Source: Patescibacteria group bacterium (GTDB taxonomy: Bacteria > Patescibacteriota > Microgenomatia > Daviesbacterales > UBA10151). Taken from it: a DNA stretch of 60,859 nucleotides. The position numbers and the translations under genes were made by a program. Shown piece after piece: positions 7,213 to 43,476 of the stretch. The stretch covers positions 1 through 60,859 of the forward strand of contig CALRFD010000007.1 in the NCBI GenBank assembly GCA_943356485.1, written 5' to 3'. Below the pieces are notes generated by a model, which worked only from the letters and a program-made list of their open reading frames with translations, was not told the origin of the DNA and did not search any database. Within the stretch, counting starts at the first letter, position 1, and every line of letters begins with the position of its first letter.

Positions 7213-7241
7213 ATTTGCTTATTTTAGCATACTCACATAGA

Positions 7242-7281
7242 TACACCTCCGAAGTGTATTAGATAGTGCACATCGGGATGG
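7242..7281 (+). repeat. REP-like element family A, left flank of RAYT1
   Basis: tacac-ctccgaa-gtgta-ttagatagtgcacatcgg. Confidence 0.8.
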
Positions 7282-7300
7282 AATAAGGAATAGATAAATA

Positions 7301-8434: not shown

Positions 8435-8986
8435 TTAGAATTTTACCTGTACATCGGCTTTTTCTTCATCAGTTGCCTGGAAAAATTGCTCTTTTGTAAA
8501 TCCAAATATATTAGCAAACCAGACATTAGGAATTGTTTCCAGGCTATTGTTTAAATCTAAAACATTAGTGTTGTAAAACTGCCTGGAAGCTGCCACCTTA
8601 GTTTCTGTATCAGAAATCTCATCTTGCAGTTGTTTAAAATTATCAGAGGCTTTAAGTTCCGGATAAGCCTCAGCCACAGCAAACAAAGATTTTAGCGCTC
8701 CACTTAGCTGATCATTAGCTTTAGCTTTATCAGACAACGAAGTTGCTCCCATCATAGCTGACCTGGCCTTAGTCACTCCCTCAAACACACTTTTTTCGTG
8801 CTTCGCATAGCCCTTAACTGTTTCAACTAAATTAGGGATTAAAGAAGACCTTCTTTTTAGCTGAACATCAATCTGTGACCAGGCCTCCCGAACTCTATTT
8901 CTTAAAGTCACTAACCCATTATAAGTAGCCAGGAACCAAAGGATTAACAAGATTGCAACTCCAATTAAAACGTAGCTTAAGATCAT
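8435..8986 (-). CDS. lemA: LemA family protein
   Basis: N-terminal TM, WSQIDVQLKRR, AEAYPELKA. Confidence 0.95.
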   Translation of the reverse strand: MILSYVLIGVAILLILWFLATYNGLVTLRNRVREAWSQIDVQLKRRSSLIPNLVETVKGYAKHEKSVFEGVTKARSAMMGATSLSDKAKANDQLSGALKSLFAVAEAYPELKASDNFKQLQDEISDTETKVAASRQFYNTNVLDLNNSLETIPNVWFANIFGFTKEQFFQATDEEKADVQVKF

Positions 8987-9182
8987 AATTAATATATTAA
9001 ACCTTTTTTTAAAATCTATCTAGTACCCAAAATTAAGAAATCCTTTTTCAATTCGTGATGATTAAGTACTCGAACACTATTTGTATTCTTTTATTTGATG
9101 AATAAATTCTGTACTCTTTCTTTAAAATAAGCCAAATACTTCTGCATTATTGAATACCGATCTTTTCTCTGCTAAAATAGCT

Positions 9183-9345
9183 TAGTTTGGGATCATAGCT
9201 CAGTTGGGTTAATAGTCCAATGGACTATTAACGGGATAGCTTCAAACTATTCCGCGTTCAGCGGATATAGGATAATTGCTATCACAGGATAGAGCGTGCC
9301 GAAGGCTTACAAGCTCAGGCATCAGATCACGTTAAGTTTGTAATC
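9183..9345 (+). pseudogene. tRNA-Asp 5' pseudo-copy interrupted by hairpins
   Basis: 25-bp exact repeat (9183-9207 = 9346-9370), then perfect hairpin gttaatagtcca-a-tggactattaac and others. Confidence 0.7.
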
Positions 9346-9351
9346 TAGTTT

Positions 9352-9428
9352 GGGATCATAGCTCAGTTGGTTAGAGCGCTTCCCTGTCACGGAAGAGGTC
9401 GCCGGTTCGAGTCCGGTTGGTCCCGCCA
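9352..9428 (+). tRNA. tRNA-Asp (GTC)
   Basis: Cloverleaf; anticodon arm cttcc-ct-GTC-ac-ggaag; T-loop ttcgagt; encoded CCA. Confidence 0.97.
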
Positions 9429-9516
9429 CATTCAGTTTACATGAACATGACCTGCATTATTTATTAGAGTAACTATAGGTTGAAAATTAGTCGCTATTCT
9501 GCTATAGTTTAGCCCT

Positions 9517-10215
9517 ATGGAAAGAGATAATGGAGTTATTGCCTTACGGACTAAACCGTTTACAAAGGTTGCCTTAAGACAAAATACGGCTTTAAATGTT
9601 TTATCCCAAAGTACCAGAGAAATATTTAGAGCAAATACCACAATGCTTTTGGAAAACCCTGAAATCCAACTACCGGAAAATAGCGGTTTTAGAAACAGGT
9701 TGGAAAAAGCTAAGGCCGAGACTGATAGCCTAATTGATCCTGGTGGAACATCATTATCCAGCGAAGAACTTAATTTTATTTATAGGCGGTGGGGGAATTT
9801 AACCTTTAACAGGATTGTCGGAAGATTTTTAACTGAAGTTTTTCCTGGTTTCTTAGAAAATAAATCGGAGAGGGAGCCCGGCGTTGTTTGTTTGGGATAT
9901 TGCTTGGATTTAATCAGGATCATCAATCCTAAAGTTGCCTCTTTTGATGCAGGAGTTCAAAGCGTTATTGATGAAATGAAGCATTCGGATTTAATTACTC
10001 CTTTTGTTTTAGGGGCAATGGTAGATGATACTATAAATCTATCTACCAGAAGCAAATCTCCAATCGACTTCCTGGCCGATAAAAAAGGCGCGCTACAATT
10101 TAAAGAGAGCTATCTAAAACTTGCAGACGAAGGTGAAAAACAAGACTTTGAAAGAGGTTTTAAGATAACCCTACATCAACTTTACTTGGATGTACACGGC
10201 ATCTCCTTAAACTAA
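9517..10215 (+). CDS. Hypothetical protein
   Basis: 232-aa ORF with -10-like tatagt just upstream; no recognised motif. Confidence 0.7.
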   Translation: MERDNGVIALRTKPFTKVALRQNTALNVLSQSTREIFRANTTMLLENPEIQLPENSGFRNRLEKAKAETDSLIDPGGTSLSSEELNFIYRRWGNLTFNRIVGRFLTEVFPGFLENKSEREPGVVCLGYCLDLIRIINPKVASFDAGVQSVIDEMKHSDLITPFVLGAMVDDTINLSTRSKSPIDFLADKKGALQFKESYLKLADEGEKQDFERGFKITLHQLYLDVHGISLN

Positions 10216-10301
10216 ACTTTTAATTCCCCCTTGACAAGAAGTGACAATTAGAATAAAAAGAAGAAGTAAAACTCTGCCCCTTTAATCCTGCCTAAAATAA
10301 A

Positions 10302-10982
10302 ATGCCAAGAAAAGCTTCCAAGATCAATAAGAAAAACCGCCCGGAAATTTCTAAATCTGTTAACCTGCAAACCAGCAGTTATTTAGACAAAATAGAAAAC
10401 GAGATTAAATCAAACCAATCTAAGTTGAATATGGTTTTAGGAGCATTGATAGTTTTAGTTATTGGGGTTTTAATATTCAATTATTTTAATAAAAATAAAT
10501 CAGATTTAGGACCTGCTCAAAATACTACCTCTGACCAACAACAAGATGTAGCCTTAAACAATCTACCGGGTAAATATACAGTTAAAGAAGGCGATACCTT
10601 ATTTGATATTGCCATTAAATATTATAATGACGGCTACAAGTATACAGAAATAGCAAAGACAAATAATATAACCAACCCAGACATAGTAACGCCCGGACAA
10701 GTGTTGGAAATACCTAAATTAGAAAGTACAGCTTCAACCCTAGCTTCACCCGTTCCTTCCCAATCACCAGCGGCTGATACGATGGAGGCCTCAAAGAATA
10801 CAACAGAGTGGGGAGCAAAAATCACCGGGGATTCATACACCGTTCAAGCAGGAGACTGGCTCTCAACAATTGCCGGAAGGGCATACGGTGATATTTATGC
10901 TTATGAAAAAATCTCTAAAGCAAATAATATAACTGATCCAAATAACATTGAGATTAATACAGTTATCCAAATCCCCAGATAA
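10302..10982 (+). CDS. Membrane-anchored protein with two LysM domains
   Basis: One TM helix; YTVKEGDTLFDIA and YTVQAGDWLSTIA. Confidence 0.93.
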   Translation: MPRKASKINKKNRPEISKSVNLQTSSYLDKIENEIKSNQSKLNMVLGALIVLVIGVLIFNYFNKNKSDLGPAQNTTSDQQQDVALNNLPGKYTVKEGDTLFDIAIKYYNDGYKYTEIAKTNNITNPDIVTPGQVLEIPKLESTASTLASPVPSQSPAADTMEASKNTTEWGAKITGDSYTVQAGDWLSTIAGRAYGDIYAYEKISKANNITDPNNIEINTVIQIPR

Positions 10983-11029
10983 ATTCCCCTGGTACACAAA
11001 ACATAAAAGGATTATGATAATATTTCTTT

Positions 11030-12655
11030 GTGTTTAAGCTTTTTTTAAAAAACCATCGGCTCAATTTTTTAATCCTTTCGTGCCTTATACTGCTAACCTA
11101 TGCCTATTTTCTAAATAACGCCTTTGTCTCAGACGATATTGCAGAAATTGCTCAAAAGCCTGAGATAGCAAATTTTTCCCATGTGCTGACTATCCCTTTC
11201 GGAGCGATCAGGTTAATTGTTTACTGGATCTGCGCAAATCTAGGCGGGGTTCATCCATTTCTTTTTAGGTTTTCTAATATACTATTCCATCTTTTTTCCG
11301 CTTGCTTTTTATACGCAATATTATTTTTAATCTATAAATCCAAACGTGTGGCTTTTTTTGCCTCTTCTCTCTTTGCCATCCATCCCGGCATCTCAGAAGC
11401 AGTTCTTTGGATCTCCGGTGGAATGTATGCCCAATATACGTTTTTTTACCTATTATCTTTTCTGCTCTATATCTTATCCGACACTTACAAAAAAGCTTAC
11501 TGGTTTTCAGCGCTTGCTTATCTTTTTTCTTTAATGTCCCATCCCGTAATGCCTATACCTTTGTTTATTATTTTTCCGTTATTTGAATTTTGCTTCGGAA
11601 ATTTTAAAAAGAACTGGGTTAAAGTTATTCCTTTCCTACTCCTTGCCATAGTTTACGTTTTCATCAACCTTGGTGCATTACCTGAGAGGGAAACAACTTT
11701 GCAAACAACTCATTACCAGGAAAAGGGGGTAGACAACCCGTTAATGCAAATTCCAATTGCCATCTCTTCATATGCAGAGCTTTTATTTTTCCCAAAAACT
11801 CTAACTCTGTACCATTCCGAACTTAACTTTAGCAGTATATCTTTTAGCATAAGAGCTTTTTTAACTGTTATGTTTTTTGTAGGTCTGGCTGCTGTTTTTA
11901 AAAAAAGCCTGCCGGTTTTTTTCTGGCTGTCTTTTTCAATTATAGCTTTATCTTTCACCCTTACTCCGTTTAGATTAAACTGGATCGTAGCTGAAAGATA
12001 TCTATATTTACCTAGCATTGGGATTTTTACTTTAGTTTCTTTGGGATTAGATAAGTTAATTTCTAAAAAACAAAACCTGAAAACCACTATCTATATAATT
12101 TTTGTAGTAGCAATAGTTTTACTGTCAACAAGAACTTTTCTCCGCGGAATTGACTGGGAAAACGAGGATAACCTTTGGATTGCCACCGGCAAGACCTCTC
12201 CCTCATCCCCAAATACCCACAACAATTTAGGTGATGTCTACGGAAGAGCAGGTGATAAACAAGCGGCTCTAAAGGAATTTCAAAGAGCGATCGATCTAAA
12301 ACCTAACTATGCTGATGCTTTTCATAACTTAGCAAATACTTACCAGGAGTTGGGGCAAAGTGATAAAGCGCTTGAAAATTATCAAAAGGCTGCTCAAATA
12401 AACCCGAGTCTTTGGCAATCTTATCAAAATATAGCTGCTTTATACTTTCAGTCTAAACAATACGATTTGGCTTTGGTAAATATCCAAAAAGCCATCTCCA
12501 TCAACCCTAAAAATATTAATTTGTACAATAATTTGGGGATCATTTATCTGTTAAAAGGAGACCGGGCTCACGCCAAAGAAATTTTTAACCAGGTATTAAC
12601 TGCTGATTCGCAAAATGAGCTGGCTAAGCGGGGACTAATCGAAGCAGGTAAATAA
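11030..12655 (+). CDS. TMTC-like GT-C membrane protein with C-terminal TPRs
   Basis: FVSDD, AERYLYLPS, multiple TMs, TPR repeats (HNNLG.VY). Confidence 0.85.
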   Translation: MFKLFLKNHRLNFLILSCLILLTYAYFLNNAFVSDDIAEIAQKPEIANFSHVLTIPFGAIRLIVYWICANLGGVHPFLFRFSNILFHLFSACFLYAILFLIYKSKRVAFFASSLFAIHPGISEAVLWISGGMYAQYTFFYLLSFLLYILSDTYKKAYWFSALAYLFSLMSHPVMPIPLFIIFPLFEFCFGNFKKNWVKVIPFLLLAIVYVFINLGALPERETTLQTTHYQEKGVDNPLMQIPIAISSYAELLFFPKTLTLYHSELNFSSISFSIRAFLTVMFFVGLAAVFKKSLPVFFWLSFSIIALSFTLTPFRLNWIVAERYLYLPSIGIFTLVSLGLDKLISKKQNLKTTIYIIFVVAIVLLSTRTFLRGIDWENEDNLWIATGKTSPSSPNTHNNLGDVYGRAGDKQAALKEFQRAIDLKPNYADAFHNLANTYQELGQSDKALENYQKAAQINPSLWQSYQNIAALYFQSKQYDLALVNIQKAISINPKNINLYNNLGIIYLLKGDRAHAKEIFNQVLTADSQNELAKRGLIEAGK

Positions 12656-21398: not shown

Positions 21399-21468
21399 AT
21401 GAGCTTAGTATAGGCGTTTGCTGCCTATAATCCAAGAGATTACAAGGAATCTAACCAACCTTAAATCT

Positions 21469-21503
21469 CACCTGGGGGGTGTAGAATTTAGGACACCTAG
21501 GGA
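21469..21503 (+). repeat. REP-like element family A, next to tRNA-Thr 3' end
   Basis: taggacacctaggga is identical to 42448-42462; preceded by a cacc...ggtg hairpin. Confidence 0.75.
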
Positions 21504-21509
21504 CTTATG

Positions 21510-21581
21510 AGCCAGCGGTGGGAATCGAACCCACGATCCATACTTTACGAAAGTATTGCTTTACCACTAAGCCACGCTGGC
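21510..21581 (-). tRNA. tRNA-Thr (CGT)
   Basis: Acceptor gccagcg/cgctggc; anticodon arm atact-tt-CGT-aa-agtat; CCA not encoded. Confidence 0.95.
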
Positions 21582-21584
21582 TGA

Positions 21585-22085
21585 TTAACTTAAAAAAGGT
21601 ACTATCGCTAAATGCTCCCACTCCGCAGGATTTAACTTGGCAGGGACAATAACCAACTCATTTACTGTAAAAAAGACTTCCGGCAGTTTTACCTTTGATG
21701 CAGCCAGCTGCCTTATCTCCATATCATGATCTCCATAAAGTAAACTGATATGCGGCATAAAAACATTATTTTCTACACCCAGTAGTTTTTTTGCTGCCAA
21801 GTTCAAGTTCATTAATTTAGCAGTAGAATTAACCCTGACAAAAACTGATTGGAAATACGTGGTACTAAATGAAACAGAACCCAAACTTAGCTCCAGCTTA
21901 TCGATTCCTGAAACTAAAGTTTTAACTTTCTCTTTAATTTCAAATAAATCCCCTTCTATATCTCCTAATAAAGTCATATGCGGTTCAAATTTTAGACCAT
22001 TAAACTCGCCGGCTAGTTGTTCGATAACTTTTTTAAGTTTGTTTTCCAGCTCTTCCGGTGGAATAACCCAAATTGTATAAAGCAT
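21585..22085 (-). CDS. 2H phosphoesterase (cyclic phosphodiesterase-like)
   Basis: Two HxT/S motifs: FEPHMTL and FMPHISL. Confidence 0.88.
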   Translation of the reverse strand: MLYTIWVIPPEELENKLKKVIEQLAGEFNGLKFEPHMTLLGDIEGDLFEIKEKVKTLVSGIDKLELSLGSVSFSTTYFQSVFVRVNSTAKLMNLNLAAKKLLGVENNVFMPHISLLYGDHDMEIRQLAASKVKLPEVFFTVNELVIVPAKLNPAEWEHLAIVPFLS

Positions 22086-22132
22086 ATAATTATTATACCT
22101 TTTTTATGAAATACGACCAGTTTGGATATGTA

Positions 22133-22957
22133 TTAAGAAACAGCTACTCTTCTAATCATCTCATCTCCATGCTGACTTAAATATCTTGAACCTCTTATTA
22201 ATCTGTCTATCGGTACAATCGGCATCATAAATTCTAAAGCAGAATGCTTAATAAAAGGATCATTCAATCCCGAACTTAACATTGATCCCCCAAATTTGCC
22301 GAATCTATCATCATAGACAGCATTTAATGAAATAAGGCCATTAACAAATAAGTGCTCTGTGAGTGTTAAGATAGTAATTATACTAATAGTCTCTACCGGA
22401 GTATTTAAATGACCACTAAGTCCTGCTGCAACTACTACTGGGAGTAAAGATAAGTCATAATTTAGTAAAGAAAAATATCCCATTGCGAAAGCCAGATTAT
22501 ATTTACCGCTATTAAAAAGCTTCTCCCTTTTTAAACAATTTAACAGTCCTCTATTTACCTCTTTGTTGAATGCATCCACATACCTGTCCTCAAATTTTCT
22601 ACCTGCTGTTTGATCCCTTGCTACTTTATCTGCTAATTCCTGATCATTAATAGCTATAAGCCAGGTGTCTTCTTCGCTTCTAGTCTGCATCATATTATCA
22701 CCCCGCCATAATCCTAAACGGGGCATTTTTAAAAACTTTGCTACTTTTACAAAGCCAACATCTTCATAGTCCCTGACCCTATCCTGAGGTTTTTGAACAA
22801 TTAGTATATTCCTTCTCATATCGCTTACTCTCATAAAATTATCAGCCACGGAAGGGTTGAGCTCCATAAGATCACTTGCTACACCGGAATAATTTAAATG
22901 TATTGCTCTAGAATGTTTATTTTTGTAATCACCTGAACTCATTTCAATATCAGCCAT
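22133..22957 (-). CDS. Hypothetical membrane protein
   Basis: 274-aa ORF with two hydrophobic segments. Confidence 0.7.
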   Translation of the reverse strand: MADIEMSSGDYKNKHSRAIHLNYSGVASDLMELNPSVADNFMRVSDMRRNILIVQKPQDRVRDYEDVGFVKVAKFLKMPRLGLWRGDNMMQTRSEEDTWLIAINDQELADKVARDQTAGRKFEDRYVDAFNKEVNRGLLNCLKREKLFNSGKYNLAFAMGYFSLLNYDLSLLPVVVAAGLSGHLNTPVETISIITILTLTEHLFVNGLISLNAVYDDRFGKFGGSMLSSGLNDPFIKHSALEFMMPIVPIDRLIRGSRYLSQHGDEMIRRVAVS

Positions 22958-23024: not shown

Positions 23025-23046
23025 GCTAATCCACCCGAAGGGTGGA
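23025..23046 (-). repeat. Left terminal hairpin of cassette (family A variant)
   Basis: gctaatccacccgaagggtgga; inverted match (21/22) to 29895-29916. Confidence 0.85.
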
Positions 23047-23171: not shown

Positions 23172-25793
23172 ATGCAGGAAGTAGAAAGACTAGGTTATAT
23201 TCCAAAAATAGAAATAGCTTTTAACCCTGAGCAGGGTGTGCCTTTTAATGTTAAAAAGATCAGTCCACGCTGGCAACTTTCTGTAAATAAAGCTCACTTT
23301 GAAGCCAGAGGTTTCCTGCCTGATGAGATAAATGGTGCAATATATTTAGAAGAGGAACTTTTATTACAACAAATAATAGTAAATTCACAGGCGGACGTTG
23401 AGGGGTTGCGTAAATGGCAGGAGGTGGCAAGTGAAGACCCCAAAGCTGTAGCTTTTAAATCTGCCTTTGAAAGACTGGCGGCGCTGTCATCCTTGGGAGC
23501 AAAAAATGAAACAAGAGCTCGTCAGGCCAGAAAATATTTAGAAAGATTTGCCTCAAGGTCACAAGGCTCAGATTATACTGATCAACTATTCGGCTACATT
23601 CTAAAAAATGGCTTGGGTCAAAACGAGCCAGTTGATGAAGGAGTAGTAGCATCGGTAGTAAATAATCTTCAAAGGCAGGAAACAATTGAGGGTAGAGATG
23701 TATCTACCTTGGAAGCGCTATTTTCACCTGATCTTTCTGCTGCTGCTAGAACTGCCTGGTTTGAGGCACGCTTTTTGCCCAGGCTTCAGTTTTTGGAATA
23801 CCAGGATGAATTGAGGAATAAACAGGAAGAAGCAGAAAGTAAAAGTGAGGCCTCATCTCAACCACAACCATTACCAGAGCCTACTCCACCTGAAGCAAAA
23901 GACGAATTTGAGCAGCACGGGGGAAGCAAAGAAAAAGGTGATGGTCAAGCGCTTTTTATTATAAACCCTTCTTATACAGGTTACTGGGAAGAAGATAGCT
24001 ATGATGTTATAGATGAAGCAACAGGCAGACTAATAAAATCATCGCCGCAAAAAGCGAAGAAAGAAGCTTTTAAGTTTCATGATGACTTTATAGATGGTTC
24101 TGCAAGAACAATAAGAGGATATTCAGGGACAAATTTATTTGCCTTGCCTTTAGCACCAAATTTCCAATTAACGGCCCAAGGTATCGATGAGCTAAAAAAA
24201 CAGGGTATGCAGGTATTAACCGATTCAGAGGGACATATTTTTATTCAATCACAAGCCATCATGCAATTTGAGACGGAAATTGCCATGAGTACTAAGCCCA
24301 ATAATGCCGGAGCTGTCTCAATCGATCGTAGTATTTCAGAGCAAAAATTACCGGACAAGATAGCTATGGAGTTAGACAGAATTGCTAATTTAGCAACAGG
24401 TTCTTTAGATAAAATTCAGCAATGGGTAGATTTTATACAAACCTTTTTTAAATTTCCAAGTGATGACCAATCTGAAGCATTATATGCAGCAGTTGACAAC
24501 AGCCTTTCCAGGCTGGAAACGGTAGCAGAGCGTAAATTATTAGACTGCCATCTGGCCAGAGAGTTTTTTATCGCAGGATTAAAACGGCTTGATTTGCCAA
24601 ATGTGGAGTGGCGGGCAGTAAATGGTTATTATGTAGCAGGTCAGCAACACGATGGCACTGCCCATTTACATTCTGGAATAAATCATGCCTGGGTTAAAAT
24701 TAGGTTAGATCAGGTTGGAAACTGGATAATCATTGACCCAACTCCTCCTGGGGATCCAAGCCATCAAGGAGAAGGAGCAATTGATGAATTTAGCCAGCTT
24801 TCCCCTCAACTTATTTCTAAAAAAGATTTAGATGAGATGGAGCAGGAAGCAATAACTTTTAGACAAACAAGATCTCCGGAAACTTACGATCATTATTTAT
24901 TAGAATTTGCCAGACAAGCCGGGATATCAGAGGAAGAAGCACAAAAAATTCTTGCGACACTCGCTCAAGTGGATAAACTCCAAGACCGTCAGGGTAGGTC
25001 TATTTTAGCCCGTCTTAAAGAACAATTTGACCGTATTATCCAACAATATACTGCTGTAAGGCAGGAAGATATGGGACTGGTCGAGATGAGTAGGGGGCAT
25101 GGTTTGGAAGAAGTGGTTGATGCTTATATTGATATTAGGTTTGGGTATACAGATCCATTAGGTTTTGCCAAAAAAAGGCCGGTTGAGGAAAAAGAGGAAT
25201 ACTATGGCGGATGGGATTTAGAGATTGTAGCTGATGGAAGCAGTTCAATGCAGGAGTCGTTAGGGGGCAGAGTGAAATATTTAGTTCAGCGGGATATGAG
25301 TTATCTGCTTCACCGCGGTTTACACCGCTTTTCCCAGGAGGCTCAAAGGAGGAAACTTAGATTGGTAACCCCTTTAAAAATAAGAAGCAGCCAGTATATA
25401 TTCAGAGGAAATAGGATTGAGGAGATAAAACCTTTAAGTGATGAGTTTACGCCGCTTCAAATGGCTCAACTCTGGAAGAAATCAGCCGAAAATATTGACG
25501 GAGTTACCCCTGCCCATCTTGGTTTGCAGGTTATTCTTGATAGAATACCACCAAATGAATTACAACTACTTAAAGATAAAAAACTGCTTAAGGTGGTAGC
25601 TTTAATTAGCGACGGTGGGTATGATGACCCGACAAGAGTTCAAAACCTAATTAACAGGTTGCATGAAATAAATGTCATCGTAGCAGAGTTTCGTATAACC
25701 TATGCCAAATCTTTAGAAGACCTGCCGCAAAATGTTGCAGAAAAAGTTATTGAAGCAGCCAGGTTGTTAATGCCGGAAAAGGTCAGAAAATAA
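23172..25793 (+). CDS. Transglutaminase-like + VWA domain protein
   Basis: LLDCHLA / NHAWV / IIDPTP triad; C-terminal VWA with MIDAS DGSSSM and LISDGG. Confidence 0.85.
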   Translation: MQEVERLGYIPKIEIAFNPEQGVPFNVKKISPRWQLSVNKAHFEARGFLPDEINGAIYLEEELLLQQIIVNSQADVEGLRKWQEVASEDPKAVAFKSAFERLAALSSLGAKNETRARQARKYLERFASRSQGSDYTDQLFGYILKNGLGQNEPVDEGVVASVVNNLQRQETIEGRDVSTLEALFSPDLSAAARTAWFEARFLPRLQFLEYQDELRNKQEEAESKSEASSQPQPLPEPTPPEAKDEFEQHGGSKEKGDGQALFIINPSYTGYWEEDSYDVIDEATGRLIKSSPQKAKKEAFKFHDDFIDGSARTIRGYSGTNLFALPLAPNFQLTAQGIDELKKQGMQVLTDSEGHIFIQSQAIMQFETEIAMSTKPNNAGAVSIDRSISEQKLPDKIAMELDRIANLATGSLDKIQQWVDFIQTFFKFPSDDQSEALYAAVDNSLSRLETVAERKLLDCHLAREFFIAGLKRLDLPNVEWRAVNGYYVAGQQHDGTAHLHSGINHAWVKIRLDQVGNWIIIDPTPPGDPSHQGEGAIDEFSQLSPQLISKKDLDEMEQEAITFRQTRSPETYDHYLLEFARQAGISEEEAQKILATLAQVDKLQDRQGRSILARLKEQFDRIIQQYTAVRQEDMGLVEMSRGHGLEEVVDAYIDIRFGYTDPLGFAKKRPVEEKEEYYGGWDLEIVADGSSSMQESLGGRVKYLVQRDMSYLLHRGLHRFSQEAQRRKLRLVTPLKIRSSQYIFRGNRIEEIKPLSDEFTPLQMAQLWKKSAENIDGVTPAHLGLQVILDRIPPNELQLLKDKKLLKVVALISDGGYDDPTRVQNLINRLHEINVIVAEFRITYAKSLEDLPQNVAEKVIEAARLLMPEKVRK

Positions 25794-25794
25794 T

Positions 25795-25852
25795 ATGTCA
25801 GATGAAATATTAAGATTAAGTGCAGATCAGGTTAGAGAAATGTTAAAACAGG
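25795..25852 (+). repeat. Shared 5' leader, copy 1
   Basis: 58 nt, 2 mismatches versus 26637-26694; first 24 nt identical to 29869-29892. Confidence 0.95.
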
Positions 25853-26619
25853 GCGAGATGGATATTCCCACTATTCCTCTTATAGAACCACAGATACCTG
25901 GTGATTCTATGATAGAACGTGCAAAAGAGGTTTTGGGAAAGGATTTTATGGGAGTAGAAGCAGTCAGGAATATGGAAAGTAAACTTAAAGGGGTTGGGGT
26001 AAATGTAGAATTTGTATTAGATAATATTCCCCTCCTGCCTTATGATGAACAGGATCTACAACTTGCCAAACAGAATGGAGAGATGTTAGTTCTTAGACCA
26101 GAAGAAATGGAAAGAGATGAAGGAAAAATGCCTCTAACTTTGATGAATTTCCGTAAGTTATTCAGTAAAAACCCACTAGGAAAGACAGGGGCTATATTTG
26201 GCACTAATTGGTATACAAGAGAAAAGTTTGCAACACAGGCTGGAGAGATAAAATTAGGCTGGTCATTGGTAAGGAAGGATGTTTTGATGGTAAGAAGAGG
26301 TGTTTTGGATGGTGCCATCTTTACTAGCTGGAATAAACAAGAAGGGCTTCTTCAGCAGTATGGAGAAGGTTTAAAAATACAAGGAGCTAAAAATGTCTCT
26401 GTCAGACGCAGGACTGCGCTGGAAGCTGTTTATGATACTCTTCTATATTATGTAAATACCGGAGAAAAACTACTTCTTGATAAATACGATTGGGGTCAAA
26501 CTAAAACATCCGTTGGTAGTTACGTGTACCTAGGTCGTTTCAATACAGGTGGTCTACGTGCGTTCCGCATCATACCTGGGCACTCGTACTACAGTATCGG
26601 TGTGTGCGCCACTAGGTAG
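25795..26619 (+). CDS. Leader-bearing protein 1; C-type-lectin-like DGR-target-like protein
   Basis: N-terminal MSDEILRLSADQVREMLKQ; C-terminal YDW.....G..V.LG.F...GL......P......GV...R* pattern. Confidence 0.75.
   Translation: MSDEILRLSADQVREMLKQGEMDIPTIPLIEPQIPGDSMIERAKEVLGKDFMGVEAVRNMESKLKGVGVNVEFVLDNIPLLPYDEQDLQLAKQNGEMLVLRPEEMERDEGKMPLTLMNFRKLFSKNPLGKTGAIFGTNWYTREKFATQAGEIKLGWSLVRKDVLMVRRGVLDGAIFTSWNKQEGLLQQYGEGLKIQGAKNVSVRRRTALEAVYDTLLYYVNTGEKLLLDKYDWGQTKTSVGSYVYLGRFNTGGLRAFRIIPGHSYYSIGVCATR
26485..26619 (+). other. Putative DGR variable region
   Basis: Shift to NNC/NNT codons (tac, agt, cgt, ttc, cgc, atc, cac, tgc) between fixed G/W/P scaffold residues at the 3' end. Confidence 0.6.
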
Positions 26620-26636
26620 TTTTAGAGGAAGAATAT

Positions 26637-27815
26637 ATGTCAGAAGAAATATTAAGATTAAGTGCAGATCAGGTTAGAGAAATGCTAAAACAGGAAGAAT
26701 ATAGAAAACTACTTTCCGCAATTGATTCCTATTCGTCTCTAGAACCAATTACATCTAGAACTTCACCCTCCAATACAATTCAAGCTGTAAGAGAATTAAT
26801 ACATTCTCATTCAGAAGACGATAAAATTGCTGGTACTAGAATGACAATATTGAACGCAAGAACTAGAATTAGCAAAGATCCAGGTATAGAGCCTCCTTTA
26901 ACAAAGGAATTAGTAGCACAACTTGCAGAAGCCTTAAAAACTAACCAGCCGTTACTTGGAGGTATAGAGGAAATACTGGATGTAGCAAATGTTTTAGGGA
27001 CAGATATTTCGGAAGAGCACAGGCGTTTAAATGAAGAAAGCAATGGCACTGTTGGAAAAAGGTTTTTTGATGAAATGGAAGCGCTTGCCATAAGAGTGAA
27101 GAAAGGAGATGGGCAAGTAGAACCTCAACTGTTCAGGCTTGCTTTTGCAGGAGAAGCGCTGTTTTCAACCCCGGAATATAAAAGCTATGATAAACTTGAG
27201 CTTGCACAAATAGCATTGAGGAATGCACGAAGAAAGGGCTTTTCACCAGCCTGGAAAAGGTTAGTTCCTCCGACATATGACGAAATAAGTGAAAGAGCCG
27301 CAAGTTTGAGCGGACGCGAATTGGGAAAATTACCTGCAGGACAAGTTTTAGCATTAATTGAGGAAAGAAAGCTAAAAGTGGGACAGCTTGTAGACATGGT
27401 TATAGATGATGAAGTAAGAAATCTTGTACGCAAACAAGCTCAAAGCGTCATCAATAGTCTCATAAGAGAGCACATAGAACATCCAAGTATTACAAGTATA
27501 ATATGGGAGTTGTTAGTAGCTTTGGAAGGTGAGGGAATAGCAAAATCAAATTTAGCAGATGTGGCTTTGGTAATCGTTGAAATGCAGGTTAAGAAAGCAG
27601 AAAAATATAGGGAAAACATTTCTACAGAATATTTAAGTTTAAACTTTCGTTCTACTAATTACGATTGGCTTAACTCAATAAGACCAACAGGTTTTTTTAA
27701 GTTGGACAAAAGAATAAGTAAAGAAGAAGCTAATAGAGATAGACTATATTTCTCTAATCTTGAAGAACTTTTAGTTAGTATATACCATGGGATAGTTGAG
27801 CAGATAACAAAATAA
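26637..27815 (+). CDS. Leader-bearing protein 2 (unknown, likely helical, domain)
   Basis: MSEEILRLSADQVREMLKQ, then unrelated to protein 1; gagga SD upstream. Confidence 0.8.
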   Translation: MSEEILRLSADQVREMLKQEEYRKLLSAIDSYSSLEPITSRTSPSNTIQAVRELIHSHSEDDKIAGTRMTILNARTRISKDPGIEPPLTKELVAQLAEALKTNQPLLGGIEEILDVANVLGTDISEEHRRLNEESNGTVGKRFFDEMEALAIRVKKGDGQVEPQLFRLAFAGEALFSTPEYKSYDKLELAQIALRNARRKGFSPAWKRLVPPTYDEISERAASLSGRELGKLPAGQVLALIEERKLKVGQLVDMVIDDEVRNLVRKQAQSVINSLIREHIEHPSITSIIWELLVALEGEGIAKSNLADVALVIVEMQVKKAEKYRENISTEYLSLNFRSTNYDWLNSIRPTGFFKLDKRISKEEANRDRLYFSNLEELLVSIYHGIVEQITK

Positions 27816-27844
27816 TTTGTGCTTTAAGCCTGCTTGAGCTATAA

Positions 27845-29863
27845 TTGCCTCCAATTGCTCAAGAAAATATGATTGTTGAAAAAGTTGCACAAGCAGCTCG
27901 AATTGGGAGTGAATATTTACCAACACGGCAAGATCCAAGTCTTTCTCCTCCTGAGAAAGCAGAACAGTTATGGGGTCTTTTTAATGACTACTCCACTTTG
28001 CGCAGAAAGCTTTACCGGGAAGGAATACAGGCAAATATAGGAGGTAGAAGAATTAGAGAAATACCTCAAGATGAAAAGGATGATATTCTTGCAAGATCCA
28101 TCCGAAATCCCCTCGCGCAGCGTTTAGTAGGAGAAATAAGTTGTCTTTGGCAAGATCTAGAGGTAAGAGGAGTTTTTGTATTAAAAGTGCAAGAATCACT
28201 TGGGGAAAGACAAATACATGATGTTTCTCTAAGAAAATACCGCAAATTAAAAAGTGAATTGGTAGGTTTGGAAGATGAAAACTTTGACTTACTCCGCAAC
28301 CAATTTTTGATGCATCAAATGACTCCAACCCTTCGGGCAATTGATCTGTTCCATAACAGGGTTGCAAAAGACAGAGTAAAGAAAAACATTGATGATTTGG
28401 AGACCACAGGGGGCATGGCTGCAAGTGCCAGGACAGCAAGGGGTGGTTTAGATAGAGAACATGCTGATTTAACTGCTCTTTTGGCTTTTGAAAGACTGGT
28501 AGCATACCATCGGGAATTTAAACTAAGCGGTATTATTCTCACCCCTTCCAGACAAGAATTACTCGGAGAAGTAGTAACGAAAACTGCAGCCGAAACCTGG
28601 ATTCAACTGGTTGGTGAAACAGGGACAGGTAAAAGTACTTTTGCCAAAAGGACTTCGCATATTCTAAATGGAGAACCTCCCCAGTATGCATCAGGAGAAA
28701 AATGGGGTGATGCCAGAGCTCTGATTGGAACAAAAACCATGGAAGGCAGCAGGGTCTATTTTGATTTTGGTCCGCTGGTATATGCTTTAACAGGATGTCA
28801 AAACTCTTTGGAGATGGAAGAAGCAATTAAGACCCGAACTGAAACACCGGGGAAAATATTGCAGCTTGATGAATTGAATAAATTTGACCAGGATGCCTTG
28901 ATGGGGGTATTAAACATAGTTTCTACTCTTAGACCGGGTGAGATATTTAACTTTAAAGAGCTTCCGGGAATTAAATTACGCAAGGCAAAAAGAGGATTTG
29001 CAATTATCGCCACCATGAATCCGGCCTCTGTTCGCTATGACAGAAAAGAACTTGATCCTTCTACAGAAAGACGTTTTTATGATGGTAAAGAAAAGGTGGA
29101 TTATCCGCCTATGACTGCCCAGGAGCCAGAGCTGTATGAGATTTTCCTGGCTGTTTTACTGGATGATAATGGCCGGATTAGAATTGCAGAGCAAGAGCTG
29201 GCGCCTGCCTTTAATGAAGTCAGAAATACTGCAACAGGCATGATTAAATACGAACTTGACTCAGATGTAAAAAAGCATGGCGCGCTTTACCGTTTTTCCT
29301 TAGCAGCAACAGAAATACATAAAAGCTTTACCCAAAAAAGTAATGTAGCTAAAACTGCCACTAGTGAAGGATTTTTAGAAAAGACAGTTCTAGATATGGA
29401 GGTTTTAGTGAAATGGATGGAGGGATATAGAGCACAAATTGAAGGTGGTGATTCGCTGGCTGCCTACTTAGACAAAAAAATTCATGATTTTTACACTAAC
29501 ATTGAAAGTGCCAATGATAAAGTGATTTTTGAGAGAATTTTTAACTACTTCGGATTTAATATCACAAATCCCCGTAACATCTCAAAACCACTGTATCATC
29601 CTTTAACACCGATTGAAATTGGCTATCTTACTCCCAAAACCCCCAGGCTAGTGCGAAGAACTGGCGAGGAAGTAACACCCAAAACAAAACTTTATATCAA
29701 CCCACGTTCAGGGGAAGAGATAACATACCTTTCTACGGATGTGGAGATAGAAGCTGGTAAAAAAATAAGACCTGGAGAGATTATTTCTTTGCGATCAAAA
29801 CAATACTTATATCTTGGTATTCACCCTGAAACTAAAGAAATTATTTTGATACTCCAGCAGTAA
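27845..29863 (+). CDS. MoxR/AAA_5-type AAA+ ATPase
   Basis: Walker A GETGTGKS, Walker B LQLDE, sensor-1 ATMNP, DPSTERRF. True start may be ATG 27869. Confidence 0.88.
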   Translation: MPPIAQENMIVEKVAQAARIGSEYLPTRQDPSLSPPEKAEQLWGLFNDYSTLRRKLYREGIQANIGGRRIREIPQDEKDDILARSIRNPLAQRLVGEISCLWQDLEVRGVFVLKVQESLGERQIHDVSLRKYRKLKSELVGLEDENFDLLRNQFLMHQMTPTLRAIDLFHNRVAKDRVKKNIDDLETTGGMAASARTARGGLDREHADLTALLAFERLVAYHREFKLSGIILTPSRQELLGEVVTKTAAETWIQLVGETGTGKSTFAKRTSHILNGEPPQYASGEKWGDARALIGTKTMEGSRVYFDFGPLVYALTGCQNSLEMEEAIKTRTETPGKILQLDELNKFDQDALMGVLNIVSTLRPGEIFNFKELPGIKLRKAKRGFAIIATMNPASVRYDRKELDPSTERRFYDGKEKVDYPPMTAQEPELYEIFLAVLLDDNGRIRIAEQELAPAFNEVRNTATGMIKYELDSDVKKHGALYRFSLAATEIHKSFTQKSNVAKTATSEGFLEKTVLDMEVLVKWMEGYRAQIEGGDSLAAYLDKKIHDFYTNIESANDKVIFERIFNYFGFNITNPRNISKPLYHPLTPIEIGYLTPKTPRLVRRTGEEVTPKTKLYINPRSGEEITYLSTDVEIEAGKKIRPGEIISLRSKQYLYLGIHPETKEIILILQQ

Positions 29864-29868
29864 CAATT

Positions 29869-29955
29869 ATGTCAGATGAAATATTAAGATTATATCCACC
29901 CTTCGGGTGGACTAGCCCGCCTTGCCGGCGAGGCAGGCTTGACACCTCTTCTTAA
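29869..29955 (+). pseudogene. Truncated third leader-bearing gene
   Basis: MSDEILRL (24 nt identical to copy 1), then runs into the hairpin and stops after 28 aa. Confidence 0.8.
29895..29949 (+). repeat. Right terminal hairpin of cassette; composite family A element
   Basis: tccacccttcgggtgga-ctagc-ccgccttgccggcgaggcagg-cttgacacct; same architecture as the murG insert. Confidence 0.85.
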
Positions 29956-30032
29956 AAAATTTAAGTAAATACAAATATATACCACCTTCCATTTGACCTA
30001 GATCGGCACATATCCTTTTACTATTTAAGGTG

Positions 30033-30104
30033 AGCGGGAGACGGAACTCGAATCCGCGACATCCTCCTTGGGAAGGAGGCATTCTACCACTGAATTACTC
30101 CCGC
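30033..30104 (-). tRNA. tRNA-Gly (CCC)
   Basis: Acceptor gcgggag/ctcccgc; anticodon arm cctcc-tt-CCC-aa-ggagg. Confidence 0.95.
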
Positions 30105-30105
30105 A

Positions 30106-30242
30106 ATCAAACTAACACTTAGCCTTAAACTAAATTTCTGTTCTTTATTTCTGCTTTGCAGAAAACGAGGCCCTCTTCCTGGGAATCATTTAGATTCCCG
30201 TCATGCACCAAGTGGTGCACGATTCACTGAATTACTCCCGCA
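30106..30242 (-). pseudogene. tRNA-Gly 5' pseudo-copy interrupted by hairpins
   Basis: 18-bp exact repeat (30225-30242 = 30088-30105), followed on the minus strand by three hairpins. Confidence 0.7.
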
Positions 30243-30328
30243 CTTTGGATATTCTCCCAAACTAGCAATAATTTATCAAGCAACACTGGACTTATTAACA
30301 AAATACCGATATAAAAGAATTTAACATT

Positions 30329-31855
30329 ATGTTAAAACAGATTACTGCCACTAAATCCCTAATCCTAGTTTTTTTGATTCTCTTTATCTCTGCCTGTCTT
30401 AGATTTTATAACTTATCAAACGTCTTTGTCTTTGCAGGCGACGAAGAATATCAGGCCATACTGGCTCAAACAATAGTTAAGCATTTTCATATCATCTGGA
30501 TTGGAGTTGGGGCAGCACATACCGGTTTTTATCTTGGACCTTATTGGACTTATTTTACTGCCTTTTGGTTGTGGCTATCAAAAGGGGATCCTTTAATTAC
30601 CGGGTATGTCTCTTCGTTTATAGGAGTTTTAACAACTTTATTAACAATAACTGCAGGCTGGCAACTATTTGGCAAAAGAACCGGACTATTATCCGGCCTG
30701 CTTTATGCCACCCTACCCCTGGTTGTGTTTTTTGACCAAAAATACTGGAATCCTACCTTAGTCCCCTTTTTATCGCTTTTAATGTTACTCGCTCTAGCTA
30801 AGATGAAGACTAATCAAAATTGGGCTATCCTACTCTCTGGATGTTTTGGTTTAATCTTTCATATACATTTATCACTTTTCCCCCTTATTTTTGTGGCTGG
30901 ATTTTGGTTAATTAAACAAAAAATTAAATTATCAAAAAAAGTTATCCTGTTATCTATTGTTACTTTTTTGTTAACAGTTGCTCCCTTAATTGCTTTTGAT
31001 TATTTTCATAAGGGATCAAATATCTTAACTCCGCTGAGGTTTAACAAAATATCCTCTGATCCGGTAAATAGAATTAATCCTCAACATCATTTTCTGGCTC
31101 TTTTCCAAACCTTGGGCAGAATCTGGTATATCGCCCCTTTTGGCAATAATTCAGATGAAGTTATAACTTCCTGCACTTCAACTTCTAGGATTGCCAGCCC
31201 GCCTTTAACTGATCAGATCTCCAAAAGGTTTAAACCGCCAATCCTATTATCCTTACTTGGCCTAACCATCCTTGCTCTCTTTCTGCTTAATCCCTCTACC
31301 TGGCGAAAGAAAAATTATAGTCTTCTGGGATTGTTTATATTATCTATAACGGGTTTTTTCCTGCTCTTTCCTGGAGGGGCTTTTGAATATTATCTTTTGG
31401 GAATCCTCCCTTTACTGCTATTTTTACCCGGCATTTTAATAGACTATTATAAAAAATCAGGCTTACTGATTATTCCCATGATAATAGTTGCTTGCTTAGC
31501 CGGAATTTTTACAATCATTTCAAACAAACCTGAATTTGGGCTTGAGGCAAAAAAAATCCTGATTCAGCAATCGTTGAGATTAATAGACAACCAGCCATTT
31601 GAGATTAAACAAACAGGTATTTGTCATTTTTATGAGGGCTGGCGCTACCTATTTGTATTAAATGGTAAAAAACCGGAAAGAAGTCAAAGCGATGAAGGGC
31701 TAGGATGGTTGTATCAGGATGAAATAACTAAGCAAAAAACTAAATACCAAATAATCCTTTCTGAAACAAGGGCACCAATAAATTTTGATACTAAAAAATC
31801 TACTGTCTTAAAATCAGGCGGTTTTAGCGCTTATATTTTTACAGAATTTAATTGA
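30329..31855 (+). CDS. ArnT/PMT-like (GT-C) membrane glycosyltransferase
   Basis: LRFYNL, GDE, YLGP, WNP motifs; many TMs. Confidence 0.82.
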   Translation: MLKQITATKSLILVFLILFISACLRFYNLSNVFVFAGDEEYQAILAQTIVKHFHIIWIGVGAAHTGFYLGPYWTYFTAFWLWLSKGDPLITGYVSSFIGVLTTLLTITAGWQLFGKRTGLLSGLLYATLPLVVFFDQKYWNPTLVPFLSLLMLLALAKMKTNQNWAILLSGCFGLIFHIHLSLFPLIFVAGFWLIKQKIKLSKKVILLSIVTFLLTVAPLIAFDYFHKGSNILTPLRFNKISSDPVNRINPQHHFLALFQTLGRIWYIAPFGNNSDEVITSCTSTSRIASPPLTDQISKRFKPPILLSLLGLTILALFLLNPSTWRKKNYSLLGLFILSITGFFLLFPGGAFEYYLLGILPLLLFLPGILIDYYKKSGLLIIPMIIVACLAGIFTIISNKPEFGLEAKKILIQQSLRLIDNQPFEIKQTGICHFYEGWRYLFVLNGKKPERSQSDEGLGWLYQDEITKQKTKYQIILSETRAPINFDTKKSTVLKSGGFSAYIFTEFN

Positions 31856-42413: not shown

Positions 42414-42425
42414 AATTAATCCCAG

Positions 42426-42462
42426 TACACCTCCGATGTGTATTAGCTAGGACACCTAGGGA
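42426..42462 (+). repeat. REP-like element family A
   Basis: tacacctccgatgtgtattagctaggacacctaggga, just past the kinase stop. Confidence 0.88.
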
Positions 42463-42465
42463 TTT

Positions 42466-43476
42466 TTAATATTTAACCGGCAGTTGAATGGAAAAGATTG
42501 AACCCTTGTTTATTTCGCTTTCTACTTTAATCAAACCCTTATGCTCATCAATAATTTGCTTGGCAATAGATAACCCTAAACCATAGCCGGAAATACCCTC
42601 TTTGGTTCTGGATTTATCTGAGCGGTAAAATCTATCAAAAATATGTGCTATATCTTCCTTGGAAATTCCGACTCCTTGATCCTTCACTTTGATAAGAATA
42701 TATCCATCTATTTTTTCTGATGTAACAATCACATTTTTCCCTTGAGGACTATACTTAATTGCATTGTCTAAAAGAATTACAAAAAGCTCTATTAAACTTT
42801 GCTTATCTCCAAGAAGTTTTATATTCCTGATATTATTTTTAACAATAATTTTTTTATTTTTTGCTAAGTTGATAACTTTTTTAACTGCTTCTTCCAAAAT
42901 TTCTAATAAATCAACTTCTTCAAAAATATTTCCGTTATTTTTTTGATATTGAGCAAGCTTGATTAAATTATCAGACAGGTATTGTAAGTTATTGACCTCC
43001 TCTAAATTACTCATCAAAAGTTTTTTAGCGTTAGGCAAATTTAGATTTTTATCCCTCAAATTAACTTCTATCTCAGACTTTAAAGAAGTTAAAGGGGTAC
43101 GCAACTCATGTGAGGCATCTGTTATAAATCTGCTTTGCTCATCAACCATCTTCTTAATCGGCTTAAGCGTTCTCCCGGCCAAAAAATATCCCAATATACC
43201 TGAGGTTGCTAAAATACCTAAGTTAATTAAAATTAATATCGACCTTAATCTATTTTTACTTTCATTTATTAACTCAGGATCTATCACAGGTTGCCTGAAA
43301 ATATTTGGTTGCAATCCTAAAGGCAGCAAACGTTCCCTTCTCAATCTTTGTACTCTTTCAACTCTAGTCAGCTCATTACTTAAAACTCCATAAATTGCAA
43401 CACTAAATGCAATACTAATCAGCATAATAATAAGTAAGTACCAACCTGTTAGCTTAAACCTGGCTGATTCAAACAT
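42466..43476 (-). CDS. Sensor histidine kinase
   Basis: DASHELRTP, DNAIKYS, D.G.G, GYGLGL; likely start MFES at 43476. Confidence 0.95.
   Translation of the reverse strand: MFESARFKLTGWYLLIIMLISIAFSVAIYGVLSNELTRVERVQRLRRERLLPLGLQPNIFRQPVIDPELINESKNRLRSILILINLGILATSGILGYFLAGRTLKPIKKMVDEQSRFITDASHELRTPLTSLKSEIEVNLRDKNLNLPNAKKLLMSNLEEVNNLQYLSDNLIKLAQYQKNNGNIFEEVDLLEILEEAVKKVINLAKNKKIIVKNNIRNIKLLGDKQSLIELFVILLDNAIKYSPQGKNVIVTSEKIDGYILIKVKDQGVGISKEDIAHIFDRFYRSDKSRTKEGISGYGLGLSIAKQIIDEHKGLIKVESEINKGSIFSIQLPVKY

Follow-up and report, generated by a model that had tools for sequence, protein, structure and literature searches.

In candidate phyla radiation (CPR) bacteria, the fusion of a lectin/FGE domain with an AAA ATPase is reported as the commonest target architecture of diversity-generating retroelements (DGRs) (Dore et al. 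2024, PMC10907252). DGR-diversified FGS domains have also been described in MoxR-vWA 'ternary' conflict systems (Kaur et al. 2020, PMC7159879; Dore et al. 2024, PMC10907252), and in MoxR-vWA and related NTPase conflict systems small effector-associated domains (EADs) have been proposed as coupling adaptors (Kaur et al. 2020, PMC7159879); both papers are used here through their passages on these architectures. Here we analysed an operon of a Patescibacteria group bacterium, in a stretch of 60,859 nt (the window; contig CALRFD010000007.1 of assembly GCA_943356485.1), in which two adjacent genes with unrelated bodies, one of them a DGR-type lectin, open with nearly the same short leader. Judged by sequence comparison, this leader is a real, family-wide feature that reaches beyond this genome. 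With a probability of roughly 0.55, we suggest that it is a docking peptide left at the split of an ATPase-lectin protein and kept uniform by gene conversion and selection, and that the whole is related, as a CPR (Microgenomates/Levybacteria-type) form, to MoxR-vWA systems with DGR-diversified lectin domains.

The genome carrying the window, G000, is a 1.2-Mb assembly of 15 contigs with 94.6% completeness; below, G denotes genomes, L loci and P proteins that were compared with it. All genes of the operon lie on the plus strand, in the order 873-residue protein, 274-residue protein, 392-residue protein, 672-residue ATPase and leader remnant:

23172 to 25793, plus strand: gene of the 873-residue core protein, which combines a Cys-His-Asp core like that of transglutaminases with a vWA domain at the C-terminus (from the open reading frame, orthologs and a model).
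25786 to 25852, plus strand: leader copy 1, in which 9 nt of similarity precede the start codon and codons 1-19, encoding MSDEILRLSADQVREMLKQ.
25795 to 26619, plus strand: gene of the 274-residue protein, in which leader and linker precede a C-type-lectin/FGE-fold domain of the kind seen in DGR variable proteins, ending in GVCATR (from an AlphaFold2 (AF2) model and VIA-align).
26628 to 26694, plus strand: leader copy 2, with 9 nt upstream and codons 1-19, encoding MSEEILRLSADQVREMLKQ.
26637 to 27815, plus strand: gene of the 392-residue protein, with leader codons 1-19 and an unrelated, probably helical domain (from the open reading frame and BLASTP).
27845 to 29863, plus strand: gene of the 672-residue AAA_5 ATPase (MoxR/dynein-related class; Pfam AAA_5, 6.5e-15).
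29869 to 29892, plus strand: leader copy 3, a remnant of 24 nt and eight codons (MSDEILRL), the same as copy 1.

Recounting confirmed an earlier note on this DNA, which had claimed 58-nt leaders that differ at two positions and then diverge. Positions 25795-25852 and 26637-26694 have 2 mismatches in 58 nt by direct comparison, one of which changes the peptide (GAT>GAA, D3E) and one of which is synonymous (TTA>CTA, Leu). Two matches to the 58-mer were found in 0 of 100 dinucleotide shuffles, and BLASTP of the 274-residue against the 392-residue protein aligned residues 1-21 alone. The similarity begins 9 nt 5' of the ATG (25786-25852 against 26628-26694; 67 nt, 93% identity) and ends abruptly after codon 19. 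The same note had placed a third copy at 29869. The sequence is there, but as a truncated remnant of 24 nt and not as the start of a gene; it sits in a 28-codon open reading frame (29869-29955) that runs on into a G+C-rich hairpin repeat. These three copies, all in one operon, are the only ones in the whole 1.2-Mb assembly. By inspection of MSDEILRLSADQVREMLKQ rather than by a predictor, the leader is charged and amphipathic, lacks a hydrophobic core, as had been claimed, and shows no features of Sec or Tat signal peptides. In the AF2 model of the 274-residue protein (pLDDT 88.4) it appears as a short amphipathic helix at the N-terminus, with a flexible linker behind it.

The family of the 274-residue protein is patchily distributed: it occurs in 6 of 96 genomes of the family, G000 included, and in 5 of 61 relatives. 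In G034 (996 residues), G060 (867 residues) and G056 (819 residues, Clp-like) the lectin domain forms the C-terminal end of an AAA ATPase, and further fused AAA-lectin proteins are encoded in L026, L031, L032 and L035. Residues 94-717 of the G034 protein align with residues 89-667 of the 672-residue ATPase (E = 6e-51), and its residues 742-996 align with residues 39-274 of the 274-residue protein. Because these alignments place ATPase and lectin on either side of it, the leader lies at the position of the fusion joint.

In eight loci (G000, G006, L034, L039, L040, L041, L042 and L044) the lectin domain is a separate gene, and in all eight the lectin gene begins with a homologous leader, there being between one and five consecutive leader genes; a homologous leader also heads the lectin in the proteins P0004 and P0007. 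The earlier note had allowed for the case that only these copies exist and that orthologs are leaderless. This case does not hold, since every split ortholog, in seven other loci, has the leader. The vWA and ATPase genes enclose one to five leader genes, and a further leader gene is found 3' of the ATPase gene. In G006, genes for proteins of 872 residues, 260 residues, 686 residues (AAA) and 276 residues follow one another, and both small genes open with MPTETLPFDPNQVPKLLKEGRIKVV, a 78-nt repeat at 96% identity. G006 and L040 share one layout, in which a vWA gene, a leader gene, an AAA gene and a second leader gene are followed by reverse transcriptase, Avd, template repeat and a serine recombinase beside tRNAs. 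The same two core genes are accompanied by three leader genes in L039 and by two in L040, and in L034 the 3' end of a vWA gene is followed by five leader genes in a row and then by the start of an AAA gene. An orphan lectin gene in L033, far from any such operon, has no leader.

Two damaged genes were seen among these relatives. At 4082-7095 of L026, a Levyibacteriota contig, the vWA partner gene appears by eye to be split by a transposase-like open reading frame of 341 codons. At G105:C14:5878-6512 (L020, L023 and L024) there is a broken copy of the lectin gene spread over three frames, with two internal TAG codons.

Leaders of different loci share a motif. For MSDEILRLSADQVREMLKQ of G000, MPTETLPFDPNQVPKLLKEGRIKVV of G006, MAEQILRIKPADVVKLIKKGDMEVV of L039, MPEEEILSLPQGSAKDLIKKGEMTVLSP of L040 and their relatives, the consensus over about 20-25 residues is x-E-I-L-R-L-x-P-x-x-V-x-x-L-x-K-x-G-x-M-x-V-V, of which residues 10-18 make up a short helix. 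Among 14 aligned leader proteins with a CLec domain, a set from which the 392-residue protein was excluded, Gly20 never varies and Leu6 hardly does. A leader hidden Markov model (HMM), run on 27,297 six-frame segments from the genome and 24 loci, gave 18 matches, all of them N-termini of genes of these operons (15 of the 18 were seed sequences), and found no copy in the 873-residue or 672-residue proteins or their orthologs. Leader identity averages 0.79 for pairs of one locus (12 pairs, range 0.48-1.00) and 0.37 for pairs from different loci (93 pairs), whereas the lectin bodies have 0.45 (6 pairs) and 0.43 (60 pairs), respectively. In a body tree of 22 rows, from which the G056 body was excluded for want of a motif for cutting, the copies 3' of the vWA gene in L040, L044, L039 and G006 group together as a clade (99/98), without their partners from the same locus. 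Since these copies cluster apart from their partners, the paralog types are older than the present leaders. Synonymous (dS) and nonsynonymous (dN) divergences between gene copies of one locus were as follows:

G000: leader dS 0.11, dN 0.02; body dS 1.7, dN 0.98.
G006: leader dS 0.20, dN 0.00; body dS 1.57, dN 0.59.
L040: leader dS 0.28, dN 0.02; body dS 1.33, dN 0.50.
L039: leader dS 0.92 to saturated, dN 0.02-0.06; body dS 1.13-1.31, dN 0.32-0.51.
L034: leader dS 0.39 to saturated, dN 0.11-0.36; body dS 1.94 to saturated, dN 0.50-1.11.

In G000, G006 and L040, leader dS of 0.11-0.28 against body dS of 1.3-1.7 points to recent homogenisation of the leader DNA, that is, to gene conversion. In L039 the three leaders are 88-96% identical as peptides despite saturated synonymous sites, and this low dN points to purifying selection on the leader peptide where homogenisation is old. 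Concerted evolution is thus seen in three of the five loci that have at least two leader genes; it is not seen in L039, and L034 is mixed.

These observations can be put together in a simple model. An ATPase-lectin protein would split, and its former joint, now the leader, would hold the released module on the core. The leader would dock each module non-covalently on a core of two proteins (transglutaminase/vWA and AAA_5), most likely on the ATPase. As each module would dock on the same core through its leader, all modules of a locus should match one site, and gene conversion or unequal crossing-over, together with purifying selection, would keep the leader copies alike. The same repeats would allow the cassette array to grow, to shrink and to take up foreign bodies. 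The interpretation given in the earlier note is thus borne out in part. The docking tag that it proposed agrees with the position at the joint, the purifying selection, the locus specificity, the leaderless orphan gene and a low complex-prediction score; binding itself remains predicted.

That score comes from a complex prediction of the ATPase monomer with residues 1-60 of the 274-residue protein, which gave weak support at 0.35 (runs 0.35, 0.32 and 0.38), against a best of 0.00 for three controls. At least 35% of contacts recur among the runs, and the pLDDT of the partner is at least 48. In the benchmark of the method, 116 of 157 solved complexes and 2 of 215 mismatched pairs reached the mark; with scores of ≤0.60, only 18 of the 157 solved complexes did, along with both passing mismatches; custom alignments were used here, so these counts are a rough guide. 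We take the prediction as a hint of contact between ATPase and leader.

Several points weigh against the docking model. From this tool, so low a score misleads in most cases unless the proposed contact was likely beforehand, and no interface was given. The leader HMM has no match in the fusion linker of G034, so that the homology of the joint is positional only. Only eight split loci were seen; they are mutually related, and most come from unbinned contigs. The five leaders of L034 are less alike than those of other loci, with identities of 0.50-0.83 and dN up to 0.36. The leader of the 392-residue protein lacks both Gly20 and the Met/Ile22 of the motif, and it may be a by-product of recombination rather than a working tag.

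The last point can be extended to the family. Every leader could be a recombination by-product without peptide function, the 5' end of cassettes duplicated in tandem and homogenised by gene conversion or unequal crossing-over, with the 392-residue gene as a chimera from a crossover within the leader. Such an origin would account for low leader dS (0.11-0.28) beside body dS of 1.3-1.7 in G000, G006 and L040, for the abrupt end of leader identity, for cassette numbers of 1, 2 or 5, and for the 112-nt junction repeat present five times in L034. It would also fit the 392-residue gene, which retains only 19 leader residues and no Gly20, and copy 3, which is a remnant. We nevertheless consider it rather unlikely, because the L039 leaders are kept as peptides (88-96% identity, dN 0.02-0.06) at saturated dS, because the motif is kept across loci with different DNA, and because in every locus the repeat starts at the start codon or within 9 nt of it. 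This placement of the repeat, which takes in the start codon and in G000 also 9 nt upstream, would also suit a conserved stretch that acts as RNA, either as a shared translation-initiation region or as a regulatory target that equalises or couples the expression of modules, and stop-to-start gaps of 1-17 nt would permit translational coupling. However, the nucleotide sequences vary strongly from locus to locus, and inside L039 too, under a peptide motif that is retained. Upstream stops and downstream starts are not in consistent frames, so that inspection excludes a read-through fusion, and an Rfam scan of 29800-30400, a range outside which the leader copies of the two genes lie, returned a tRNA only. 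An action as RNA is thus improbable.

At the peptide level, a short N-terminal amphipathic helix with a flexible linker, found on proteins with different bodies, could also be a targeting signal (for non-classical export or compartment loading, or a degron) instead of a dock on the operon proteins. We give this little credence, since the leader has no hydrophobic core and is specific to a locus rather than to an organism; no other open reading frame of the 1.2-Mb genome has it. In P0018, moreover, the leader precedes a separate Tat-like or membrane segment and would stay in the cytoplasm, although the Tat label (score 0.83) is a lead only. Finally, three copies in one operon and nowhere else in the genome might suggest a single recent duplication confined to G000, but homologous leaders on split lectin genes in seven other loci and on P0004 and P0007 make this extremely improbable.

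A bolder form of the docking model is possible, though we hold it tentatively. The leader may be a locus-specific 'address code' by which one AAA+/vWA-transglutaminase machine takes changeable plug-in modules (several DGR-hypermutated lectin sensors along with unrelated domains), with the same repeat used to duplicate, swap and capture cassettes. If this were true, modules would be unable to cross-talk with another system, since each locus has its own leader, and diversification in genomes of ~1 Mb would have two layers, point hypermutation by the DGR and shuffling of leader cassettes.

Our results also bear on the second role suggested in the earlier note, that of a recombination handle. In L034 a 112-nt junction that runs from the lectin 3' end across the spacer into the next leader is present in five copies. 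Together with the variable arrays, the chimeric 392-residue gene and the remnant, these junction repeats would fit gain, loss and capture of cassettes through crossovers in the leader repeat. A role at the DNA level is indicated indirectly; low dS in three loci and variable cassette arrays agree with it. No junction variant was seen in assembled contigs: the Logan contigs of three DNA runs of one study reported none over 25300-30200, but contigs drop rare variants, and this result speaks neither for nor against the role. The Logan contigs break at the leader repeats, for example as 25813-26684 and 26655-29956. The leader is unlikely to be the site of the serine recombinase that the islands of G006 and L040 encode, as the leader DNA differs between the two loci though both have the recombinase. 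Fusion of the upstream protein to a leader gene by read-through or frameshift was rejected, because the junction offsets differ.

The bodies behind the leaders are mostly lectins, which form three clades; P0019 has in addition a tandem lectin pair. The 392-residue body has a sole relative, P0017, among 1.84 billion representatives (50% identity; residues 42-386 against 233-581), and no relative was found in 60 related genomes or in a word-indexed search; the Atlas gave no usable match. P0017 itself is a metagenomic protein of 1106 residues, FtsK-like with alpha, motor and gamma domains, whose soluble N-terminal region holds the relative of the 392-residue body. In P0018, from L034, the leader is followed by the Tat-like or membrane segment and then by an unassigned, membrane-anchored domain; Atlas labels for this protein are leads only. 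P0006 starts with MSDEILRLKP and continues with about 165 unrelated residues, a second full leader and a lectin body. Its N-terminal insert was tried as a relative of the 392-residue protein and rejected, as the first residues alone align (E = 0.032). Residues 239-250 of the 392-residue protein resemble the leader by eye but gave no score with the leader HMM, and were rejected likewise.

The 274-residue protein shows the C-terminal C-type-lectin/FGE fold of DGR variable proteins. In VIA-align its best match was TvpA (2y3c; Z 9.8, rmsd 3.6, 155 residues aligned), followed by Mtd (1yu0; Z 8.7) and TaqVP (5vf4; Z 6.4), and the match to DGR variable proteins and FGE-like lectin folds covers approximately residues 81-274. 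Foldseek alone gave a weak match (best E = 0.11). The DGRs of G006 and L040 are real. Reverse transcriptase (1e-27 in G006, 1.9e-25 in L040), bAvd (8.8e-19 and 3.3e-20) and a template repeat are present in both, and adenines of the template repeat vary in the variable repeat of each leader gene. In both cases the DGR (reverse transcriptase, bAvd and template repeat) is followed by a large serine recombinase and a tRNA pair (L013 10268-14270 for G006; 8889-12305 for L040), and the whole unit of DGR, recombinase and tRNAs may be an integrative island.

In the G000 assembly, the G006 reverse transcriptase query matched nothing, bAvd gave sub-threshold matches only (22.8 and 22.3 bits, elsewhere in the genome, at a cut-off of 40), and the last 156 nt of the 274-residue gene have no second copy, so that no template and variable repeat pair was found. 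With an assembly 94.6% complete, loss of the DGR from G000 is likely. Furthermore, the cassette that relatives have after the ATPase gene is reduced in G000 to eight codons, which end at a hairpin repeat, and the 392-residue gene has kept only 19 leader residues. On these three grounds the locus looks partly decayed, and G000 probably carries a decaying or frozen version of the system.

The operon is flanked by tRNA-Thr and tRNA-Gly genes, and further features lie at its edges:

21509 to 21581: tRNA-Thr(CGT), bounding the locus on the upstream side.
23025 to 23045, minus strand: inverted copy of CCACCCTTCGGGTGGAYTAGC, upstream of the operon.
29896 to 29916, plus strand: dispersed hairpin repeat CCACCCTTCGGGTGGAYTAGC, 21 nt, abutting the truncated leader.
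30032 to 30104, minus strand: tRNA-Gly(CCC), bounding the locus on the downstream side.

The repeat CCACCCTTCGGGTGGAYTAGC has 11 copies in the 1.2-Mb genome at ≤2 mismatches and could be a REP-like (repetitive extragenic palindrome) or terminator-type element. Double-hairpin repeats of 50 nt, at 1715-1764, 7241-7290, 21466-21515 and 42425-42474, are 62-80% identical to a reference copy, and their layout (hairpin, TAGC, GACACCT) resembles the element 3' of leader copy 3. The first 19 nt of tRNA-Gly(CCC) are repeated at 30228-30246, about 124 nt upstream of the gene and beside a hairpin; ARAGORN and Rfam called no second tRNA there, and no repeat of the tRNA-Gly 3' end that could serve as an att site was found in the window. 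An exact 25-nt direct repeat occupies 9183-9207 and 9346-9370; tRNA-Asp (9352-9428) starts within the second copy, and the repeat may be a partial tRNA duplication. Adjoining the operon, the minus strand of 21585-22957 holds a gene of the 2H/cyclic-phosphodiesterase family (CPDase, 1.4e-13) and an open reading frame of 274 residues without family match.

The core proteins were assigned through relatives and models. The 873-residue protein of G000 has itself no significant match in Pfam or NCBIfam, but C459, H505 and D522 as well as D688-x-S690-x-S692 are invariant (six orthologs), and the G034 ortholog matches Transglut_core (5.8e-13). An AF2 model of the last 234 residues matches vWA domains in Foldseek (best E = 1.6e-07, probability 1.00; 290 matches at E ≤0.001). 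Motif DxSxS and model match together mark this protein as the vWA partner of MoxR-vWA systems, with a model pLDDT of only 65.7. The 672-residue ATPase, a candidate member of the MoxR class, matches Pfam AAA_5 (6.5e-15) without a PDB sequence match; PDB sequence profiles of both families gave nothing significant. No VMAP was identified, though no search was aimed at that family; beyond AAA_5, the operon proteins match no named family in Pfam, NCBIfam or PADLOC, and PADLOC and NCBIfam gave no meaningful match for any of them.

For ATPase-attached DGR lectins, a shared, co-evolving tag on the split form would show which proteins assemble. The split form would offer a minimal peptide-docking pair, and the leader would exemplify short-tract concerted evolution tied to function. 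Split loci would also show cassette number and content varying on top of DGR mutagenesis. No literature was found that treats DGRs jointly with concerted evolution.

Short constant segments at the head of interchangeable bodies are known elsewhere. In polymorphic toxins, the orphan C-terminal modules are arrayed as cassettes with a joining segment that stays constant. Bacterial microcompartments have encapsulation peptides, in which an amphipathic helix at the N-terminus and a linker target varied cargo to one structure. The present leader is similar in heading interchangeable bodies and in providing repeats as homology for swapping. However, no toxin, immunity or shell genes accompany it, and unlike toxin cassettes, every leader cassette brings a start codon of its own and would probably be expressed alongside the others, not displaced.

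Compared with the AAA-lectin DGR proteins of CPR bacteria, the lectin fold, the fused relatives and, in relatives, reverse transcriptase, Avd and template repeat with adenine-specific changes in the variable repeat are alike. In the present family, however, the lectin gene is split off behind a leader, has 2 to 5 or more copies in a locus and stands beside a transglutaminase/vWA gene, and in G000 neither reverse transcriptase nor template repeat was found. The MoxR-vWA ternary systems, as portrayed in the cited passages, share the pair of AAA_5 and vWA, the peptidase-type domain (here transglutaminase-like) and a DGR-diversified lectin as presumed sensor. There, FGS is usually on the vWA component with VMAP as third part, and hosts are multicellular; here the lectin is on the ATPase or alone, and hosts are CPR bacteria with tiny genomes.

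The passages of PMC7159879 and PMC10907252 on these systems (main text) and the literature searches gave no description of such a leader, and EADs are among its closest counterparts. We set the leader apart from EAD families by their descriptions. EADs are described as folded domains, thought to be homotypic, with one copy on the core component (PMC7159879), whereas the leader is a peptide of about 20-25 residues. Since the HMM found no leader copy on the vWA/transglutaminase protein or on the ATPase, any contact of the leader would be heterotypic. In other respects, EADs as described there (PMC7159879) and the leader are alike: both are small, non-enzymatic terminal modules on several different bodies of one operon; in both, neighbouring copies resemble one another more than they do copies elsewhere, as with the leader identities of 0.79 and 0.37; and in both, other genomes have the same bodies in direct fusion with a core component.

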